Below, piece by piece: positions 37,015 to 63,916 of a stretch of 64,000 nt of DNA. This DNA comes from Actinomycetota bacterium (GTDB lineage Bacteria; Actinomycetota; Actinomycetes; Actinomycetales; Microbacteriaceae): assembly GCA_041180115.1 (NCBI GenBank), contig JBEGRZ010000002.1:13615-77614 (forward strand), written 5' to 3'. The stretch's first letter is position 1. Every line of letters begins with the position of its first letter. Below the pieces are notes generated by a model. That model was not told the DNA's origin. It did no database searches and saw only the letters and a list, made by a program, of their open reading frames with translations. The position numbers were made by a program, and so were the translations under genes.

Positions 37015-37050
37015 AAAAGCCCCGAGAAATCTCTCGGGGCTTTTCTATTT
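37015..37050. terminator. bidirectional intrinsic terminator shared by mqo and the tRNA cluster
   Basis: A perfect 9-bp GC-rich stem GCCCCGAGA/TCTCGGGGC (37019-37027 / 37032-37040) encloses the loop AATC. An A-tract lies on the left and TTTTCTATTT on the right. It sits 10 nt after the mqo stop and abuts the tRNA-Val 3' end. Confidence 0.7.
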
Positions 37051-37124
37051 GGTGGTCGTAACTGGGATCGAACCAGTGACCCCTTCCATGTCAAGGAAGT
37101 GCGCTACCGCTGCGCCATACGACC
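37050..37124 (-). tRNA. tRNA-Val (anticodon GAC), CCA encoded
   Basis: The reverse complement is GGTCGTATGGCGCAGCGGTAGCGCACTTCCTTGACATGGAAGGGGTCACTGGTTCGATCCCAGTTACGACCACCA. It folds as a full cloverleaf: acceptor GGTCGTA/TACGACC, anticodon stem CTTCC/GGAAG with loop TTGACAT, and a TTCGATC T-loop. Confidence 0.9.
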
Positions 37125-37141
37125 GGGTCTTTTTGTTTTTG

Positions 37142-37216
37142 AGGTGGAGACGGGATTTGAACCCGTGGTTTTACAGCTTTGCAGGCTGCTGCTTTGGGCC
37201 GCTCAGCCACTCCACC
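37142..37216 (-). tRNA. tRNA-Cys (anticodon GCA)
   Basis: The reverse complement is GGTGGAGTGGCTGAGCGG...GCAGCCTGCAAAGCTGT...ACGGGTTCAAATCCCGTCTCCACC. The acceptor is GGTGGAG/CTCCACC, the anticodon loop is CTGCAAA and the T-arm is ACGGG/CCCGT. The exact ends are approximate. Confidence 0.8.
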
Positions 37217-37236
37217 GTGTTACAGCAGCTGCTGTG

Positions 37237-37309
37237 AGCGGATGACGAGATTCGAACTCGCGACCCCAACCTTGGCAAGGTTGTGCTCTACCAACTGAGC
37301 CACATCCGC
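37237..37309 (-). tRNA. tRNA-Gly (anticodon GCC)
   Basis: The reverse complement is GCGGATGTGGCTCAGTTGGTAGAGCACAACCTTGCCAAGGTTGGGGTCGCGAGTTCGAATCTCGTCATCCGCT. It forms a complete cloverleaf with anticodon loop TTGCCAA. Confidence 0.9.
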
Positions 37310-56585: not shown

Positions 56586-58670
56586 CTAAGCGTCGATTTT
56601 GTCGGTGTCGAAATCATCGGCTGAGTCGATGATGAATTCGCGTCGAGGTGCGACCTCGTTACCCATAAGTAACTCGAATACCTTTTCGGCCGCCTCGGCA
56701 TCTTCGACGCGTACGCGGCGAAGGGTGCGGTGATCGCGGTCCATAGTGGTTTCTGCTAGCTGATCCGCATCCATTTCACCAAGACCCTTGTAACGCTGAA
56801 TTGGCTCTTGGTAACGCTTTCCCGAAGCAGCGAGTTTGGTAAGCACCGCTTCTAGTTCAGCCTGTGAGTAGGTGTAGAGAGTGTCATTTGGCTTGGAACC
56901 AGGGTTCACAACCACAACGCGGTGCAATGGCGGCACAGCAGCGAATACGCGACCGGCTTCAACCATTGGTCTCATGTAGCGGAAAAACAGTGTGAGCAGG
57001 AGGGTACGAATGTGAGCACCGTCAACATCCGCATCACTCATGAGGATTACCTTGCCGTAGCGAGCCGCATCTAACTCAAAGCTCCGGCCTGAACCGGCAC
57101 CGATCACCTGAATGATTGAAGCGCACTCGGTGTTGGAAAGCATGTCTGAAACGGAAGCCTTCTGAACGTTCAGGATCTTTCCGCGAATTGGAAGTAGCGC
57201 TTGGAACTCACTGTTACGGGCAAGCTTTGCGGTACCCAGGGCCGAGTCACCCTCCACGATGAACAACTCAGAACCTTCGGTCTCCTGAGTGCGGCAGTCA
57301 ACCAACTTAGTTGGAAGTGATGAAGTTTCCAGAGCGTTCTTGCGGCGCTGAGTTTCCTTGTGGGTTCGGGCCGAGATACGAGACTTCATCTCGGTAACAA
57401 TCTTCTCGAGCAGCAGAGCCGACTGAGACTTGTCATCACGTTTGGTCGAACCGAAACGATCTGCAAGCGCCTTGGCAACCACGTTGGTTACAATGTTGCG
57501 CACCGCTGGAGTACCTAGGATTTCCTTGGTCTGGCCTTCGAACTGAGGCTCGGCGATACGAACTGAAACGATGGCGGTGAGGCCGGCGAGAATATCTTCC
57601 TTCTCAACCTTGTCATTGCCAACTTTGAGTTTTCTGGCATTTGCGTCGATCTGCGCACGAAGAGTCTTCATCAGACCTGCTTCGAAACCAGCGATGTGGG
57701 TTCCACCCTTTGGAGTGGCGATGATGTTTACGAAGGACTTAACCTCTGACTCGTAGCCAGTGCCCCAGCGAAGTGCAACCTCAACTCCGCACTTACGCGC
57801 CACCTCTCGGGAAACCATATTTCCCGATTCGTCAAGCACAGGAACGGTCTCGGTGTAGTCACCCTCGCCGGTGATGCGCCAGGTGGCCGTGAGCGGGGCG
57901 TCCTTGGCTAGGAAGTCTGCAAATTCAGTAAGCCCGCCATCGAAGCGGAACTTGTGTTCGACTGGCTCAGCAAGGCGCTCATCGCGAACTGAGATGGCAA
58001 GGCCAGAGACTAGAAAAGCGGTCTGTCTGGCTCGACCGATCAGGTCTTCCAATTCAAATTTGGCGTCCTTGATGAAAATCTGTGGGTCGGTCCAATAGCG
58101 CACTCGGGTACCCGAAACACCCTTGGCAATCTTGCCGATTTCGCGAAGCTTGCTGGCATCCTCAAACGGCTGGAACGGATTCGAGGCAGCAATCCCCTTG
58201 GAGTCATCGAAGATGCCCGGCTCACCGCGACGGAACGACATCGCATAAGTTTTGCCATCGCGGTCAACTTCAACATCCAAACGCTCGGACAATGCATTCA
58301 CAACCGATGCACCAACACCGTGTAGACCGCCGGATGCCGCGTAAGAGCCGGAGCCAAACTTTCCACCAGCGTGCAACTTGGTGAAAACCACTTCAACACC
58401 GGTCAGTCCGGTTTTCGGTTCGATGTCTACCGGGATGCCTCGAGCGTGGTCGCGAACTTCAACCGAACCGTCGTTGTGGAGTTTGACCTCGATGCTATTT
58501 CCATAGCCTGCTAGGGCTTCGTCTACCGAGTTGTCGATGATCTCCCAAAGGCAGTGCATGAGACCGCGGGAATCAGTAGAACCGATGTACATACCCGGAC
58601 GTTTACGTACAGCTTCTAACCCCTCTAGAACAGAGAGGTGTCTTGCTGAGTAATCGTTGTTTGGCACCAA
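56586..58670 (-). CDS. parE: type IIA topoisomerase subunit B, ParE-like (topoisomerase IV)
   Basis: 694 aa. The GHKL ATPase (GLHCLWEIIDNSVDE-like, GGLHGVGASVVNALS), Toprim (ELFIVEGDSA) and PLRGKILNV-like motifs are present. Confidence 0.88.
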   Translation of the reverse strand: MVPNNDYSARHLSVLEGLEAVRKRPGMYIGSTDSRGLMHCLWEIIDNSVDEALAGYGNSIEVKLHNDGSVEVRDHARGIPVDIEPKTGLTGVEVVFTKLHAGGKFGSGSYAASGGLHGVGASVVNALSERLDVEVDRDGKTYAMSFRRGEPGIFDDSKGIAASNPFQPFEDASKLREIGKIAKGVSGTRVRYWTDPQIFIKDAKFELEDLIGRARQTAFLVSGLAISVRDERLAEPVEHKFRFDGGLTEFADFLAKDAPLTATWRITGEGDYTETVPVLDESGNMVSREVARKCGVEVALRWGTGYESEVKSFVNIIATPKGGTHIAGFEAGLMKTLRAQIDANARKLKVGNDKVEKEDILAGLTAIVSVRIAEPQFEGQTKEILGTPAVRNIVTNVVAKALADRFGSTKRDDKSQSALLLEKIVTEMKSRISARTHKETQRRKNALETSSLPTKLVDCRTQETEGSELFIVEGDSALGTAKLARNSEFQALLPIRGKILNVQKASVSDMLSNTECASIIQVIGAGSGRSFELDAARYGKVILMSDADVDGAHIRTLLLTLFFRYMRPMVEAGRVFAAVPPLHRVVVVNPGSKPNDTLYTYSQAELEAVLTKLAASGKRYQEPIQRYKGLGEMDADQLAETTMDRDHRTLRRVRVEDAEAAEKVFELLMGNEVAPRREFIIDSADDFDTDKIDA

Positions 58671-58736: not shown

Positions 58737-59324
58737 ATGACTTCGAGAGTGCATTCAGGGCGGCTACGTCGTGAACTGCGCCTTTCGAAGTCGGCTGTTG
58801 AGGCAAATCTCTCTGTTCTGGGGCTCAGCCCAGAAGAAGCTCGTCCGGTCATTGACGCAGTGATGACTTTCGATGGGCTCCTCGGGCTCTATGGCACCGA
58901 ACTACTCTTGCTTGAAAAAGTCTTGGGGCTTGGCACCGAAACCCCAGCGGTTCGCCTTGTTGGTGAACTCGTCTCGGTGAAGCAGGTTCCGGCTGACACC
59001 GGCATATCATACGGACACCTTTCTAAGACTTCTGAGCCAACCAACCTAGGCTTGGTCGCCCTAGGCTTTTCTGACGGAATCCCGCGAGCCGCCACCAACG
59101 AACTAATGGTCAAGATTCAGGGCAAGGCATACAAAAATGTGGGCCGCATCGCGATGGATCAGCTCATTATCAATCTAGGTATCGATAGCCCGTCCATTGG
59201 TTCCGAGGTTGAGCTTTTCGGCGATGCGCAGACTTTGGCGCAATTGGCCGGAGTTACCGGATTCTCCCCGCTTGAAATCATCGGACGCATCCCGGCTCGT
59301 GTTGCTAGGACGTGGTCGGATTGA
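58737..59324 (+). CDS. stand-alone alanine-racemase C-terminal-domain protein (retains catalytic-Tyr motif)
   Basis: 195 aa. LVGELVSVKQVPADTGISYGH...LGLVALGFSDGIPR...VGRIAMDQLIINLG...GSEVELFG aligns by eye with the whole Ala_racemase_C beta-domain, including the SYG Tyr (nt 59010-59012) and the MDQ motif. No PLP-Lys barrel is present. It could alternatively be a gene remnant. Confidence 0.6.
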   Translation: MTSRVHSGRLRRELRLSKSAVEANLSVLGLSPEEARPVIDAVMTFDGLLGLYGTELLLLEKVLGLGTETPAVRLVGELVSVKQVPADTGISYGHLSKTSEPTNLGLVALGFSDGIPRAATNELMVKIQGKAYKNVGRIAMDQLIINLGIDSPSIGSEVELFGDAQTLAQLAGVTGFSPLEIIGRIPARVARTWSD

Positions 59325-60331
59325 CCGTAGCCAAGCATGTAGATCTCGCGGCTTACGTTCGAAACCTAAAGACCATTCGAGAGCAGATGCAGCCTGCGCG
59401 CATAATGGCCGTTGTGAAGGCGGACGCCTATGGTCACGGATTGGTCGAGGTAGCCAAGGCTGCCGCGACCGCCGGCATCAACCTGCTTGGCGTACTCGAT
59501 GTTGAGACCGGCTTGGAACTGCGCCTGGCTGGAGTTCAGACCACCGCCTTCGCTTGGGTGCACTCCCCTTCTACCGACTTCGAAGCAGCCATTCGCTCGA
59601 ACATCGAACTTAGCGCTTCTTCCTTAGCCGAGCTCGAACGCATCGCGATGGCCCCTGGCATGGCCAAGGTTCACTTGAAACTTGACTCCGGACTTAGCCG
59701 GGGTGGAACCCGAATTGAGGATTGGGACGCACTGGTGACTCGTGCTGTAGCACTGGACGCCCGCGACAAGATTGACCTGGTGGCCGTTTGGTCGCACCTC
59801 TCGGGAACCTCAAAGTCTGCCGACGAAGCCTCGATAGCTCTCTTTGACGAAGCGACCAATCGCGCCTTCGACCTCGGCTTCACCGGCTATCGACACATTG
59901 CTTCGAGCCCGGCTGCATTTGCACTTCCGCAGTCTCGTTATGAGCTCGTGCGCATTGGTGTGAGTGCATTTGGCACCTCGCCGATTGAGGGCCGCAAGGC
60001 TTCATCGTTCGATCTCGAATGTCCAATGACGGTGACAGCAGAAGTAATTGCTCCGCAGGTAATTTCAATCGGTTTTCTCCACGGCTACTTCTCAAAGCTC
60101 AGCGGCAAGGCCAAGGTACTAATCGGCGGTCGTGCGTACCAGGTGACTCAGGTTGGTCCGCTCGCGTCCAAGATCGAGGCTGGCGACTATAGCGAAGGTG
60201 ATGAGGTTTTGGTTTTTGGTGGCGAGGATACTGGCGCTCCAACCGCGGAATACCTTTGTGAATTGGTTGAAACCGTAACCGATGAAATCTTCACCGGCCT
60301 GAAGGCAAACTCAACGATTTACTCGTCTTGA
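59312..60331 (+). CDS. alanine-racemase-family PLP enzyme with degenerate C-terminal domain
   Basis: 339 aa. The barrel motifs are intact: MAVVKADAYGHG (PLP Lys at nt 59417-59419), WSHLSG and VRIGVSAFG. The C-terminal domain lacks the GE.V.YG segment and the MD motif. It overlaps the upstream ORF by 13 nt. Confidence 0.8.
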   Translation: MVGLTVAKHVDLAAYVRNLKTIREQMQPARIMAVVKADAYGHGLVEVAKAAATAGINLLGVLDVETGLELRLAGVQTTAFAWVHSPSTDFEAAIRSNIELSASSLAELERIAMAPGMAKVHLKLDSGLSRGGTRIEDWDALVTRAVALDARDKIDLVAVWSHLSGTSKSADEASIALFDEATNRAFDLGFTGYRHIASSPAAFALPQSRYELVRIGVSAFGTSPIEGRKASSFDLECPMTVTAEVIAPQVISIGFLHGYFSKLSGKAKVLIGGRAYQVTQVGPLASKIEAGDYSEGDEVLVFGGEDTGAPTAEYLCELVETVTDEIFTGLKANSTIYSS

Positions 60332-61009
60332 GATAGCCTCTCGAGACTTTTCGGCAAGTTGATTTAGCGTCGCATTCCTCTTGGCAACTTTGCCCGAAAT
60401 TCCTAGCAACTCATCGGCGACACTTGGGTTCATCGGCAGGAACGGACCCTGAATGTTGGTGGCGATGATGTTGCCAGTGCGGTAGCCGTCTTGGTAACCG
60501 ACCAATTGCGCCTCATTCGAAGACGAAACCGTGGCCAAAATTGACTCTGTCCCACCACGCACAATCTCGCGGTTCCAGTTGATGAATCCCGCTAGTCCAG
60601 ATTCGGTTACAACTTCACCAACTAGGTGATCGTTAGTGATTCGATGCCTGGTATCGGCGAGACCCAGCCCAAATAGGGTTTGCCCGGGCTCAACTTCAAG
60701 ACCTTTGGAGATTAGGTCGAAACCCGCGCCAACCGCGAGAACCTTGGCACCCGCGCCAACCCAATCAATAAGCTTTGGAGACTTCTTTTCGAGATCCACA
60801 GAGGCGACCTTCACCGCACTGAGGATTCCGGAACCGATGAAAATCAAGTCGGGTTTTTCGGTTGGTAGGTTTTCACCCAACTCGACCGACTGAACTGCTA
60901 CTTCTAGCCCACTCGCCTTGCCGCGTTCTACAAGCGCAACGACATTTCCAACTTCCCCGTTTAGGTGAAGGGTATTTGGGTAGAGATGAAGAATCGTGAA
61001 TTTAGGCAT
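60311..61009 (-). CDS. gatD: GatD-like (CobB/CobQ-type GATase fold) partner of MurT, cysteine-free
   Basis: The ATG at 61009 (MPKFTILHLYP...) overlaps the murT stop by 8 nt. The 232-aa product is collinear with GatD, but the nucleophile elbow reads LAVGAGFDL and the His motif reads NIQGPFLP. There are no Cys codons in the ORF. Confidence 0.82.
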   Translation of the reverse strand: MPKFTILHLYPNTLHLNGEVGNVVALVERGKASGLEVAVQSVELGENLPTEKPDLIFIGSGILSAVKVASVDLEKKSPKLIDWVGAGAKVLAVGAGFDLISKGLEVEPGQTLFGLGLADTRHRITNDHLVGEVVTESGLAGFINWNREIVRGGTESILATVSSSNEAQLVGYQDGYRTGNIIATNIQGPFLPMNPSVADELLGISGKVAKRNATLNQLAEKSREAISRRVNR

Positions 61010-62255
61010 TTCCGCCCTCAAGGTCTAGAAGGCCGAGACGCTTGCGCAACCACATCATCTGCTCGTAATTGATCACTGCGGTTTTGTTGGTGCCAGGCAG
61101 TTTCAGGAAGTACTCAAGCGCTGCGTTTTCGTCCTCAATTAGTTCACCGAAATCTAGGTTCTCGTAGGCGAGCCTTGTGGCCCACTGGTAAGTCTTGGTT
61201 CCCGAAATGACATCTGCATGGCGAAGTTTGCCGAGGTCAATATCGTAAATCCACGAAGGATCCGGCGTTCCCTCGTCAACGGAAATCCACACGGTCTTTG
61301 GACTCTCCTGCAATGCATCGAGGTTCGCCTGCAGGCTTGGCAAATTCTTCATCATGATGATTTCGATGTTCTGGCCCTGGTGATGAATAACTTCGCCACG
61401 ACCATAAACGGCTTGCAGTTCGGAAATCGCATCGGCGGCAACCTGCGCCTTGAAATCGGCGCCGATGATCTTCGATGCCATACCGATAGCCAGAGCCGCA
61501 TCGACGGCATAGTGAAGCCCTGCAGCCGGCAGAGTCAGCTCGACCGCGGCACCGCCGTGAGTGATGACCGCACGGTTCCCCGATGTTGAAACTAGATTGA
61601 TGATGTGTTGCAGGTCCGATTCATCTAAGTCAAAACTAGGTGCAGCCAGGATTCCATTTCTGGCCGATGCCACAGCTTCCTTGCTTGCGTAAACTCCGAA
61701 AGCCTTGAGACGTGCTCGGTGTCCCTTGGCTAGTCGTTCGGTATTCGGATCGGTTCCGTTGACCACCAGTAGTTCTTTAGTGAGAGTGGCCAGCTCGTCA
61801 AGGTAACCAAACACTTCTTCCGGTGAATGGAAGCGGTTCAGCTGATCAAACTGCAGGTTGGTTAGCAGTAGACCGTTTGGCGCAACCTTTTTGGCAATTA
61901 ACTTTCCGTAGGCTTCGTCAACTTCAAGCACAGCCACATCGTGATCAAGGCGTCCGAAGAGACTGACGTCGGCCAGCAGAGCCGATGCCAGTCCCTGCGG
62001 AAGGTTACCGCCAGCTGGGTTAGAAAGAACTCTTAGCCCATGAGCACGCAGAACCTTGACCAGCATTGCTGTTGTCGTTGATTTACCGTTGGATCCGCTT
62101 ACGAAATAGATTCCGCGCTGCATGCGGCCGAGAGTTTTCTGGAGGAACTTAGGCTCGATTGCTAGGGCGATTCGACCGGGAACGGCCGAACCACCACCAC
62201 GCAGCCTAAGGACAAAGCGAAGCGCCTTGCCCACCAGAACTGCCAGTGGAATCAT
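61002..62255 (-). CDS. murT: MurT-like Mur-ligase-family protein
   Basis: 417 aa. The P-loop VSGSNGKSTT, EVDE, TNLQFDQLNRF and the MurT C-terminal string DPSWIYDIDLGKL are present. There are no Cys codons in the ORF. Confidence 0.85.
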   Translation of the reverse strand: MIPLAVLVGKALRFVLRLRGGGSAVPGRIALAIEPKFLQKTLGRMQRGIYFVSGSNGKSTTTAMLVKVLRAHGLRVLSNPAGGNLPQGLASALLADVSLFGRLDHDVAVLEVDEAYGKLIAKKVAPNGLLLTNLQFDQLNRFHSPEEVFGYLDELATLTKELLVVNGTDPNTERLAKGHRARLKAFGVYASKEAVASARNGILAAPSFDLDESDLQHIINLVSTSGNRAVITHGGAAVELTLPAAGLHYAVDAALAIGMASKIIGADFKAQVAADAISELQAVYGRGEVIHHQGQNIEIIMMKNLPSLQANLDALQESPKTVWISVDEGTPDPSWIYDIDLGKLRHADVISGTKTYQWATRLAYENLDFGELIEDENAALEYFLKLPGTNKTAVINYEQMMWLRKRLGLLDLEGGNA

Positions 62256-62257
62256 CG

Positions 62258-63916
62258 CTAGTTTCCGCGGAACTCACTCAGACGCTGTGCACGGGTTGGG
62301 TGCTTCAGCTTCGAGATCGCCTTGTTTTCGATCTGGCGAATACGTTCACGAGTCACGCCGATTTCTTCACCAATCTGGTCAAGGGTCTTCGGGATTCCGT
62401 CGATCAGGCCGTAACGGTGACGAAGGATCAGCGCTTCGCGCTCGCTCATGGTCGAAAGGATTCTTTCGAGTTCACGCTTACGAGCAACCGCGGTCACTGC
62501 TTCTAGCGGGCTTACAGCCTCGGTGTCTTCGATGAGGTCACCGAACTCGCTGTCGCCATCCTCGCCAAGTGGGGTGCTTAGCGAGATTGGCTCACGACCG
62601 TACTTCTGAACTTCAACAACCTTTTCAGGGGTCATGTCAAGTTCACGAGCTAGTTCTTCTGGGGTCGGTTCACGGCCAAGATCTTGAAGCAACTGACGCT
62701 GTACACGAGCAAGCTTGTTGATAACTTCAACCATGTGTACCGGAATGCGAATGGTTCGCGCTTGGTCTGCCATGGCTCGGGTAATTGCCTGACGAATCCA
62801 CCAGGTTGCGTAGGTCGAGAACTTGTAGCCCTTGGTGTAGTCGAACTTCTCAACCGCACGGATCAGACCCAGGTTTCCTTCCTGGATTAGGTCTAGGAAC
62901 TGCATGCCACGCCCCGTGTAACGCTTGGCAAGGCTAACCACCAAACGAAGGTTGGCTTCGAGCAGGTGACTCTTGGCTCGCTCTCCGTCCTTCTTCACAC
63001 GGTTTAGGTCGTACTGCATCTCCTTCGAGAACTTTGCCTTAGGGTCGGCTAGTTTCTCAGCGGCGTAGAGACCAGCCTCGATTCGCTTCGCAAGTTCAAC
63101 CTCGAGCTCAGCATTTAGAAGCGCAACCTTACCGATCTGCTTCAGGTAGTCCTTGACTGGGTCAGCGGTCGCGCCGTTGATGGCTGCGGTCTGAACTGGA
63201 ATGTCGTTCTCTTCTTTGTTGCTGAGAACGAAACCACCGCCGGCTTCTACTAGCTTTTCTTTTTCCTTAGCCGATGCGTCTAGGCCAGATTCGTCGTCTG
63301 TCGACTCATCTTCAATTTCGGTTACGTCAACTTCAGCGGCTGCGTCCTTGACAATGTCTTCTACCGAGTCAAGCGGTTCGTCTTCATCGTCTAGCTCTTC
63401 GTCATCCTCGTCCATGCCCTTAGGTAGCTTGCCAGGTTTGCCCTTGGCCACCTTGGTCGCCTTGGCTGGCTTCGCTGCAGGACCAGTGCTCTTGGCGGCT
63501 TTGGCTGGCTTTTCAGTCTTTTCGGCGACAGGAGCTTCCGCCTTCTTGGTCTTTGGAGCAGCCTTAGCTGCAGGGGCTAAATCTTTAGCCTTCTTCTCCA
63601 CTGCAGGTTTTACGGCCTTTGCAGCTGGCGCGACCTTCTTAGCGGCAGGCTTAGCTGCCTCGGTCTTCTTTGGAGCAGCCTTGGTCGCAGGTGCAGCCTT
63701 CTTTGGAGTGGCTACTGCGGCAGGCTTCTTCGCAGCAGGCGCCTTGGCAGGTGTGGAAGTCGTTTTTGCAGGGGTGGTCTTGCTAATGGTGCTGGTTTCC
63801 TTTGCTTCTGTCATTGCCGCCGGAGCTTTTGGCTCCTGTTTGCCTGATCCAAACAGTCCTTTCAAAAAGGACTGCTTCTTGGCTGGCCCCTGGCCGTTCG
63901 CTTTGTCGTTCCCCAA
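62258..63916 (-). CDS. sigA: principal RNA polymerase sigma factor (SigA/HrdB/RpoD type)
   Basis: The C-terminal ~300 aa carry regions 1.2-4.2 ([83 protein letters not shown]). The N-terminal ~250 aa are low-complexity. The start is uncertain: TTG 63916 or ATG 63814. Confidence 0.95.

Follow-up and report, generated by a model that had tools for sequence, protein, structure and literature searches.

A diverged MurT/GatD pair without the glutaminase nucleophile and an adjoining two-gene racemase as a possible system for B-type peptidoglycan bridges in the Microbacteriaceae

Genes of the locus

A stretch of actinobacterial DNA of 64,000 nucleotides (nt), referred to here as the window and used for all gene coordinates, carries at 58737-62255 four adjacent and overlapping genes whose products resemble the MurT/GatD complex, which amidates the alpha-carboxyl of D-glutamate (D-Glu) in lipid II, and alanine racemase (Alr). 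An earlier interpretation made from the letters of the DNA only (the sequence-only reading) had proposed that these genes constitute a module for a non-canonical peptidoglycan cross-bridge. Open reading frames (ORFs) were confirmed for all four at these positions, with domain matches far beyond chance:

58737-59324, plus strand: racC, an alanine-racemase C-domain-only protein (195 aa; Pfam Ala_racemase_C, 8e-28)
59312-60331, plus strand: racN, an alanine-racemase-family protein with a complete pyridoxal phosphate (PLP) barrel and a degenerate C-domain (339 aa; Pfam Ala_racemase_N, 3e-46, and a weak Ala_racemase_C, 8e-8)
60311-61021, minus strand: gatD-like, a predicted pseudo-glutaminase (236 aa, 0 Cys; Pfam GATase_3, 1e-7)
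61002-62255, minus strand: murT-like, a Mur-family ligase (417 aa, 0 Cys; Pfam Mur_ligase_M, 3e-10, and MurT_C, 6e-6)

The genes on each strand overlap, by 13 nt for racC and racN (59312-59324) and by 20 nt for murT-like and gatD-like (61002-61021, given a TTG start for gatD-like). At their converging 3' ends, racN and gatD-like have 21 nt in common (60311-60331), an overlap pointed out in the sequence-only reading and verified here base by base. The locus is thus made up of two convergent units, racC-racN and sigma70-murT-gatD, rather than a single operon. The murT-like and gatD-like genes are predicted to be translationally coupled, and the canonical MurT/GatD systems of Staphylococcus aureus (SA1708/SA1707), Streptococcus pneumoniae, Streptococcus pyogenes and Mycobacterium tuberculosis (Rv3712/Rv3713) are likewise two-gene, translationally coupled pairs. 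The related genomic loci compared below are 13-kb stretches, designated by L numbers.

The MurT-like ligase

The best NCBIfam models for the murT-like product are those of MurT, with scores far below the cut-offs (NF045635, 92 bits versus 800; NF052464, 75 bits versus 800), while the Pfam MurT_C domain is recognised at 26.8 bits against a cut-off of 25 and S. pneumoniae MurT is matched at 6e-27. When an AlphaFold2 model built on a 28-sequence alignment (predicted local distance difference test score, pLDDT, 87.6) was searched against the PDB with Foldseek, the top 11 matches were all MurT chains, from S. pyogenes, S. aureus and S. pneumoniae (E 4e-19 to 1e-15), followed in rank by MurF, MurC and pseudomurein ligase. 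Identity to the solved MurT structures is 19-20%. The MurT-like and the GatD-like proteins both truly belong to their superfamilies, but have diverged strongly within them.

As in canonical MurT, a truncated N-terminus is followed by a Mur central domain with P-loop, Mg-binding Glu and acceptor Asn, and by MurT_C. Among 84 relatives there is no variation in the P-loop (GSNGKSTTT) or in (L/I)EVDE with its Mg-binding Glu. Relatives also invariably have N79 and N84 of the NPxGxN motif, which aligns with NPSGAN of S. pneumoniae MurT, where Asn85 touches the acceptor carboxylate (PMC6085368). The interface loop DQLNRF (DQxxRF) is also conserved in the relatives. The protein differs from S. aureus MurT in an invariant shorter loop, DEGTPDPSW, which replaces DNAADGRDTSW with the Asp349 equivalent kept, and in a family-specific C-terminal tail (NYEQMM..R..G..DLEGG). 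The MurT-like protein looks catalytically competent, in that it keeps the residues for ATP activation of a carboxylate, and its designation as a MurT-like ligase in the sequence-only reading is upheld by its domains, its fold matches and these catalytic residues.

A further difference from S. aureus MurT is the absence of the Cys-rich ribbon. Without a single cysteine, the window protein cannot form the Cys4 ribbon, and the four further homologues from Microbacteriaceae that were compared contain no cysteine or one. Ribbon loss had been put forward as a distinctive trait, a view dismissed here because the Cys4 ribbon has already been reported as variable and is lacking in many MurT proteins (PMC6085368, PMC6113224), with the Cys tetrad limited to 'some Actinobacteria' (PMC6085368).

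Divergence on this scale is compatible with a ligase acting on a different acceptor, such as another stem-peptide carboxylate or a non-peptidoglycan polymer, in which case the likeness to MurT would reflect common ancestry. The low identity to solved MurT structures, the scores far below the equivalog cut-offs and the position of MurF and MurC close behind in the fold ranking would all agree with this. Such a change of acceptor is nevertheless quite unlikely, given that MurT chains occupy all eleven leading fold matches, that the truncated N-terminus, the MurT_C domain, the pairing with GatD and the acceptor Asn are retained, and that the gene shares a housekeeping operon with that of the principal sigma factor.

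The GatD-like protein

GatD is the best NCBIfam model for the gatD-like product (77 bits versus an equivalog cut-off of 450; second model, 50 versus 400) and S. aureus GatD in the PDB is matched at 5e-16. In common with canonical GatD, the protein has the class-I amidotransferase (CobB/CobQ-like) fold and the conserved loop for contact with MurT. Alignment with S. aureus GatD places Gly of the window protein opposite the nucleophile C94 and Gln opposite H189. When orthologs from 83 related Microbacteriaceae loci were added, giving 84 sequences, the C94 column was found to hold Ala (44), Gly (37) or Ser (3) and never Cys, so that, unlike canonical GatD, no sampled member of the family has the nucleophile. 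The H189 column is more mixed, with His in 57 sequences, Gln in the 16 of the window's clade and Gly in ten (Clavibacter, Microcella and several metagenome-assembled genomes (MAGs)). The activity of S. aureus GatD is lost on C94G or C94S substitution (PMC3266927, PMC6113224). Because it is without any cysteine, as the sequence-only reading had noted, the GatD-like protein is predicted to be incapable of glutamine hydrolysis.

Absence of the Cys from GatD is a selected state of the whole family and not a local accident. The gatD-like ORF is intact in all 83 related loci, and comparison with L005, a relative with 91% MurT identity, gave a pN (non-synonymous differences) of 0.205 versus a pS (synonymous differences) of 0.745. 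Purifying selection is evident on all four genes across the Microbacteriaceae. Residues that are invariant or nearly so among the 84 sequences include N21-G22, G100, N148 and E/D178-G179, the triplet G63-S64-G65 at the site of the oxyanion Gly triplet, and the MurT-contact loop G192-P193-x-L-P-M-N198. At the position of S. aureus Arg128, Arg is present in 62/84 sequences and His in the window protein; its S. pneumoniae equivalent, Arg142, has been proposed to capture the substrate glutamine (PMC6085368). Conservation of the former glutamine pocket although the nucleophile has been lost suggests that a ligand may be bound without being hydrolysed. In the sequence-only reading, the glutaminase would have become dispensable while its scaffold was kept. 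The strong conservation of the pocket suggests that the GatD-like protein may be more than a scaffold.

The racemase pair

The closest sequence and fold matches of racN and racC are the Alr proteins of Streptomyces lavendulae (1VFH), Streptomyces coelicolor (5FAC) and M. tuberculosis (1XFC), with which they share domains and motifs, and both the fold-type III barrel and the beta C-domain of Alr are present across the pair. The best PDB matches of racN are the Streptomyces and Mycobacterium enzymes. Scores against the TIGR00492 alanine racemase model are below its cut-off of 168 bits for both racN (148 bits) and racC (90 bits).

The Alr active site is formed by Lys39 of one subunit and Tyr265' of the other. 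In racN, the PLP-Lys motif AVVKADAYGHG, the VR.G motif and the Arg219 equivalent are conserved, while the C-domain is without the segment that bears Tyr265' (SYG) and the Met312'/Asp313' motif; neither SYG nor MD[QN] was found in the 79 aligned racN sequences (78 loci and the window). The cis-acting C-terminal helix of racN is kept, with an invariant Asp (T-x-D-E) at the position of Tyr354. In racC, SYG, the Tyr265 equivalent, is invariant among the relatives, the MDQ core of the GRIAMDQ stretch (Met312/Asp313 equivalents) is kept in all except one truncated sequence, and the Tyr354 position is variable. An AlphaFold2 model of racC with a pLDDT of 89.5 fits onto the C-domain of Streptomyces Alr with a deviation of ~2 A, the sequence identity being 40-43%. 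Unlike in Alr, the catalytic motifs are therefore borne by two polypeptides, with the cis elements in racN and the trans elements in racC. The occurrence of the PLP-Lys only in racN and of the Tyr and Met-Asp only in racC implies a putative obligate racN:racC heterodimer, for which a single active site would be expected, as against the two of the Alr homodimer.

A search with the racC family profile, whose list of the top 120 matches was filled by orthologs, gave in that list only proteins of 150-270 aa, those that are named being from Microbacteriaceae and annotated as 'alanine racemase C-terminal domain-containing protein'. The longer homologs (230-250 aa) retain an N-terminal DLRADAYGHG, a vestige of the PLP motif in which Lys has become Arg, and this indicates that racC derives from a full-length racemase by internal loss. 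Together with the gene order, in which the C-domain gene precedes the gene for the N-domain and degenerate C-domain, the vestige points to racN and racC being two diverged copies that decayed in a complementary manner after duplication. The sequence-only reading had taken them for one racemase gene cut in two, an origin excluded by the same observations.

Tyr354 limits the size of the side chain accepted by Alr, and Asn is found in its place in the VanT serine racemases. The invariant Asp at this position in racN hints at a changed or broadened substrate, and the product of the pair could be D-Ala, D-2,4-diaminobutyrate (D-Dab) or D-ornithine, or both D-Ala and such a diamino acid. The VanT models of NCBIfam are matched weakly by racN. 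A desert actinobacterium that contains Dab has been reported to carry a 'vanT' with 31% identity to the CARD reference while being sensitive to vancomycin (PMC12275160), and such matches may represent racN-type racemases.

The loss of the catalytic residues in GatD and of whole domains in racC is also what decaying pseudogenes would display. Decay of gatD-like and racC, like an annotation artefact, was ruled out, and as an explanation it is extremely improbable: the ORFs are intact wherever the flank reaches, with racC absent only from four Clavibacter loci, motifs are invariant in both proteins, the racC model is confident, and pN (0.16-0.21) is well below pS (0.71-0.75) in both genes.

Host lineage and wall type

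Recognition of B-type peptidoglycan dates back to the 1970s, and in 1972 Schleifer and Kandler reportedly described that in such walls the alpha-carboxyl of D-Glu bears the interpeptide bridge. The sequence-only reading had assumed, as a premise, that the source of the window belongs to a lineage with walls of this type. The G+C content of the window is 51-56%, and relatives of the MurT-like protein with 71-93% identity occur in freshwater metagenome assemblies, while named Microbacteriaceae such as Microcella match it at ~53% identity. A genome scan with variant-specific patterns for the MurT-like protein, covering one genome per species and returning the best 80 loci, yielded Microbacteriaceae in every case. 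The closest named relatives among these loci are Rhodoluna MAGs (71-75% MurT-like identity), and identities of 48-53% are seen for Leifsonia, Clavibacter, Pseudoclavibacter, Microcella, Pontimonas, Gulosibacter, Conyzicola and others. One record (L051; NZ_CP194644.1, 4.27 Mb) is titled 'Streptomyces sp. L7', but its locus cannot be told apart from those of Leifsonia, the MurT identity being 50% and the GatD motifs the same; the record is probably misnamed.

From these relationships, the source of the window is a Rhodoluna-like freshwater member of the Microbacteriaceae. Rhodoluna lacicola has a 1.43-Mb genome with 51.5% G+C, and its peptidoglycan is of type B2beta (B10), containing Dab, Ala, Gly, homoserine and Glu, with a D-Dab bridge; the peptides Mur-Gly, Gly-D-Glu and D-Ala-D-Dab were recovered from partial hydrolysates (PMC4156110). 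Since the homologous loci are all from Microbacteriaceae and the R. lacicola wall is B2beta, the premise is correct at the level of the family, as judged from relatives of the host. The MurT-like protein would thus operate in a lineage where the D-Glu alpha-carboxyl bears the bridge, while in the canonical MurT/GatD systems it bears an amide.

The wall type bears directly on whether the MurT-like/GatD-like pair still amidates D-Glu, using free ammonia and with the dead GatD as a structural partner only. The S. aureus GatD/MurT complex does take ammonia at elevated pH (PMC3266927), and the catalytic residues of the MurT-like protein are intact. Amidation is unlikely, however, as B-type walls carry the bridge on the very carboxyl concerned and the R. 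lacicola hydrolysate fits B2beta; moreover, if GatD served only as a structural partner, such good preservation of its substrate pocket would be surprising.

Proposed function of the four genes

The interpretation favoured here is that the MurT-like/dead GatD pair attaches a bridge amino acid to the alpha-carboxyl of lipid II D-Glu, with a heterodimeric racN:racC making a D-amino acid of the wall; judged from the sequences, the chances that this is correct are about even. The MurT-like ligase would phosphorylate the alpha-carboxyl of lipid II D-Glu, as canonical MurT does, and the attacking amine would be that of the first residue of the B-type bridge (D-Dab in a Rhodoluna-type B2beta wall) in place of glutamine-derived ammonia. 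The dead GatD would be retained as a partner that the C-terminal domain of MurT cannot do without and, because the former glutamine pocket is still conserved, would probably bind or position the incoming amino acid. For the racemase, racN would contribute the PLP-Lys barrel and the cis Asp, and racC the Tyr and Met-Asp, to one shared active site, making D-Ala, D-Dab or both for the wall. Such a mechanism would fit the requirement of group-B walls for a carboxyl-activating ligase exactly where MurT acts, and the fact that the glutaminase would have no role there, yet its subunit is kept under selection.

MurC-F and the archaeal pseudomurein ligases, which come next after MurT in the fold search, share the ATP-dependent activation of a carboxylate followed by attack of an amine, and differ from the MurT-like protein in their use of nucleotide precursors, in a full N-terminal UDP-binding domain and in the lack of a GatD partner. 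The proposed reaction would combine MurT-type acceptor recognition with a MurE/MurF-like amino-acid nucleophile.

A more far-reaching version can be put forward only tentatively, its probability being well short of even. According to this, the pair would be the missing D-Glu alpha-carboxyl:diamino-acid ligase that founds every B-type bridge, the GatD pocket would hold the D-diamino acid, racN/racC would be a new, obligate heterodimeric racemase supplying that D-diamino acid, and other Cys-less GatD proteins, such as those of Oscillibacter, would point to other ways, so far undescribed, in which the D-Glu alpha-carboxyl is substituted.

Conservation of the genes and spread of the dead GatD

The murT-like/gatD-like pair is present in every related locus (n=83), and racN/racC adjoins gatD-like in all loci with enough flank except four from Clavibacter. 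When the window gatD-like protein was searched against 1.84 billion representative proteins (E <= 1e-3), 1086 matches were obtained, and about 100 of the best 150 are without the nucleophile Cys. Of 30 clusters with a divergent Cys-less GatD that were looked up, those with a name are from Rhodoglobus, Rathayibacter, Frondihabitans and 'Microbacteriaceae bacterium'; those of low GC are metagenome proteins. A further Cys-less set, less closely related, is found widely in gut metagenomes and belongs to Oscillibacter where it is named.

Several of these observations weigh against the proposed function. In Oscillibacter, a clostridial genus of the gut (L085-L088), MurT is followed by a Cys-less GatD (L085 4664-6750; L087 4654-6729). 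The GatD nucleophile has thus been lost more than once, in independent lineages, and the exclusivity of a dead GatD to the Microbacteriaceae is refuted. Since Oscillibacter also has a Cys-less GatD beside MurT, a dead GatD is no private marker of B-type walls and is not by itself a sign of B-type chemistry. The Oscillibacter pair shares the dead GatD with the window and differs in that its MurT has retained both the Cys-rich ribbon and a canonical SETSWLWD motif and that no racemase is adjacent; the case neither supports nor refutes the B-type idea. The genome scan, for its part, is silent on absence from A-type lineages because of its variant-specific patterns and its restriction to the best 80 loci. 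According to the literature consulted, M. tuberculosis is one of the A-type actinobacteria in which a canonical, active MurT/GatD is at work, and the MurT/GatD operon has been described as universal in Actinobacteria with no mention of a dead-GatD subgroup (PMC6085368).

The identity of the proposed nucleophile, furthermore, is deduced from wall chemistry, and the position of the racemase is affected by the four Clavibacter loci (L052, L070, L074 and L075), in which the order is sigma70-murT-gatD-DUF7455-topoIV B, with no racN/racC at the site (e.g. L075 5938-10558). The Clavibacter bridge is likewise D-Dab (B2gamma). As Clavibacter thus has the ligase pair without racN/racC there, the racemase at this site is not indispensable for the pair, and what links the two pairs is their adjacency, in convergent units. 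At this site, the co-conservation that the sequence-only reading had made a test of its module holds for murT/gatD in all loci and for the racemase pair in those with enough flank outside Clavibacter. The tie between racemase and ligase is weakened by their convergence and by Clavibacter.

These findings lend weight to a view in which there is no single module: the ligase pair would have its own wall function, racN/racC would be the housekeeping alanine racemase and their adjacency would be inherited synteny. The probability of this falls only a little short of even. The units are convergent and not co-transcribed, Clavibacter has murT-gatD without the racemase pair at the site, racN and racC are both closest to actinobacterial Alr, and complementary loss would be expected from neutral subfunctionalisation of an essential homodimer, so that racN/racC may be an ordinary alanine racemase. 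The invariant Asp at the racN Tyr354 position, on the other hand, hints at a changed or broadened substrate, and adjacency has been kept in all loci with enough flank outside the four from Clavibacter.

With respect to earlier work, the bridge-ligase interpretation can be regarded as a well-supported hypothesis on a putative variant of the known MurT/GatD and Alr systems. A search of the literature, with many subscription papers outside its reach, revealed no assignment of a B-type bridge ligase, in line with the sequence-only reading. Nor did it reveal a role for MurT or a dead GatD in Microbacteriaceae, or an alanine racemase made up of two genes.

Genomic context

Two further genes flank the four described above:

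62258-63916, minus strand: principal sigma-70 (HrdB-like) gene, from the ORF list, immediately upstream of murT-like
56586-58670, minus strand: topoisomerase IV/gyrase B-like gene, from its ORF translation, divergent from racC and lying in the flank, outside the proposed system

Only 2 nt separate the sigma-70 stop codon from the murT-like ATG (...GGAAAC TAG CG ATG..., window 62253-62260), which makes it probable that sigma-70, murT-like and gatD-like are co-transcribed. The wall genes thus appear to be transcribed along with the housekeeping sigma factor gene, and the order sigma70-murT-gatD recurs in related loci. The topoisomerase IV B-like neighbor recurs in L001 and L003. In other genera, a small conserved gene of the DUF7455 family, with CxxC...CxHH-like residues, is located between the racemase pair (gatD in Clavibacter) and topoisomerase IV B (L001 11718-11942; L075 8040-8489). 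It is absent from the window, where the gap between racC and topoisomerase IV B is only 66 nt.

A promoter and terminator scan of the region gave nothing above the shuffled expectation, and Rfam and tRNA scans of the window identified only three tRNAs, distant from the locus and clustered on the minus strand at 37050-37309 (Val-GAC, Cys-GCA and Gly-GCC). The remaining Pfam-annotated part of the window codes for ordinary core metabolism, including the pyr and aro operons, alaS, relA, secF, aconitase and dxs.

Significance for the Microbacteriaceae

The racemase pair represents a clear case of a homodimeric enzyme that appears to have become a two-gene heterodimer by complementary loss. The locus as a whole provides a concrete, family-wide candidate for the enzyme that joins the bridge to the alpha-carboxyl of D-Glu, and so renders an old open question testable. 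If the proposed function is correct, an amidotransferase complex would have been turned into an amino-acid ligase by silencing of its glutaminase while the subunit itself was kept. The genes would then also serve as a genomic marker by which wall chemistry may be predicted in uncultured actinobacteria, and would offer a target specific to the lineage in plant pathogens, Clavibacter and Leifsonia among them.

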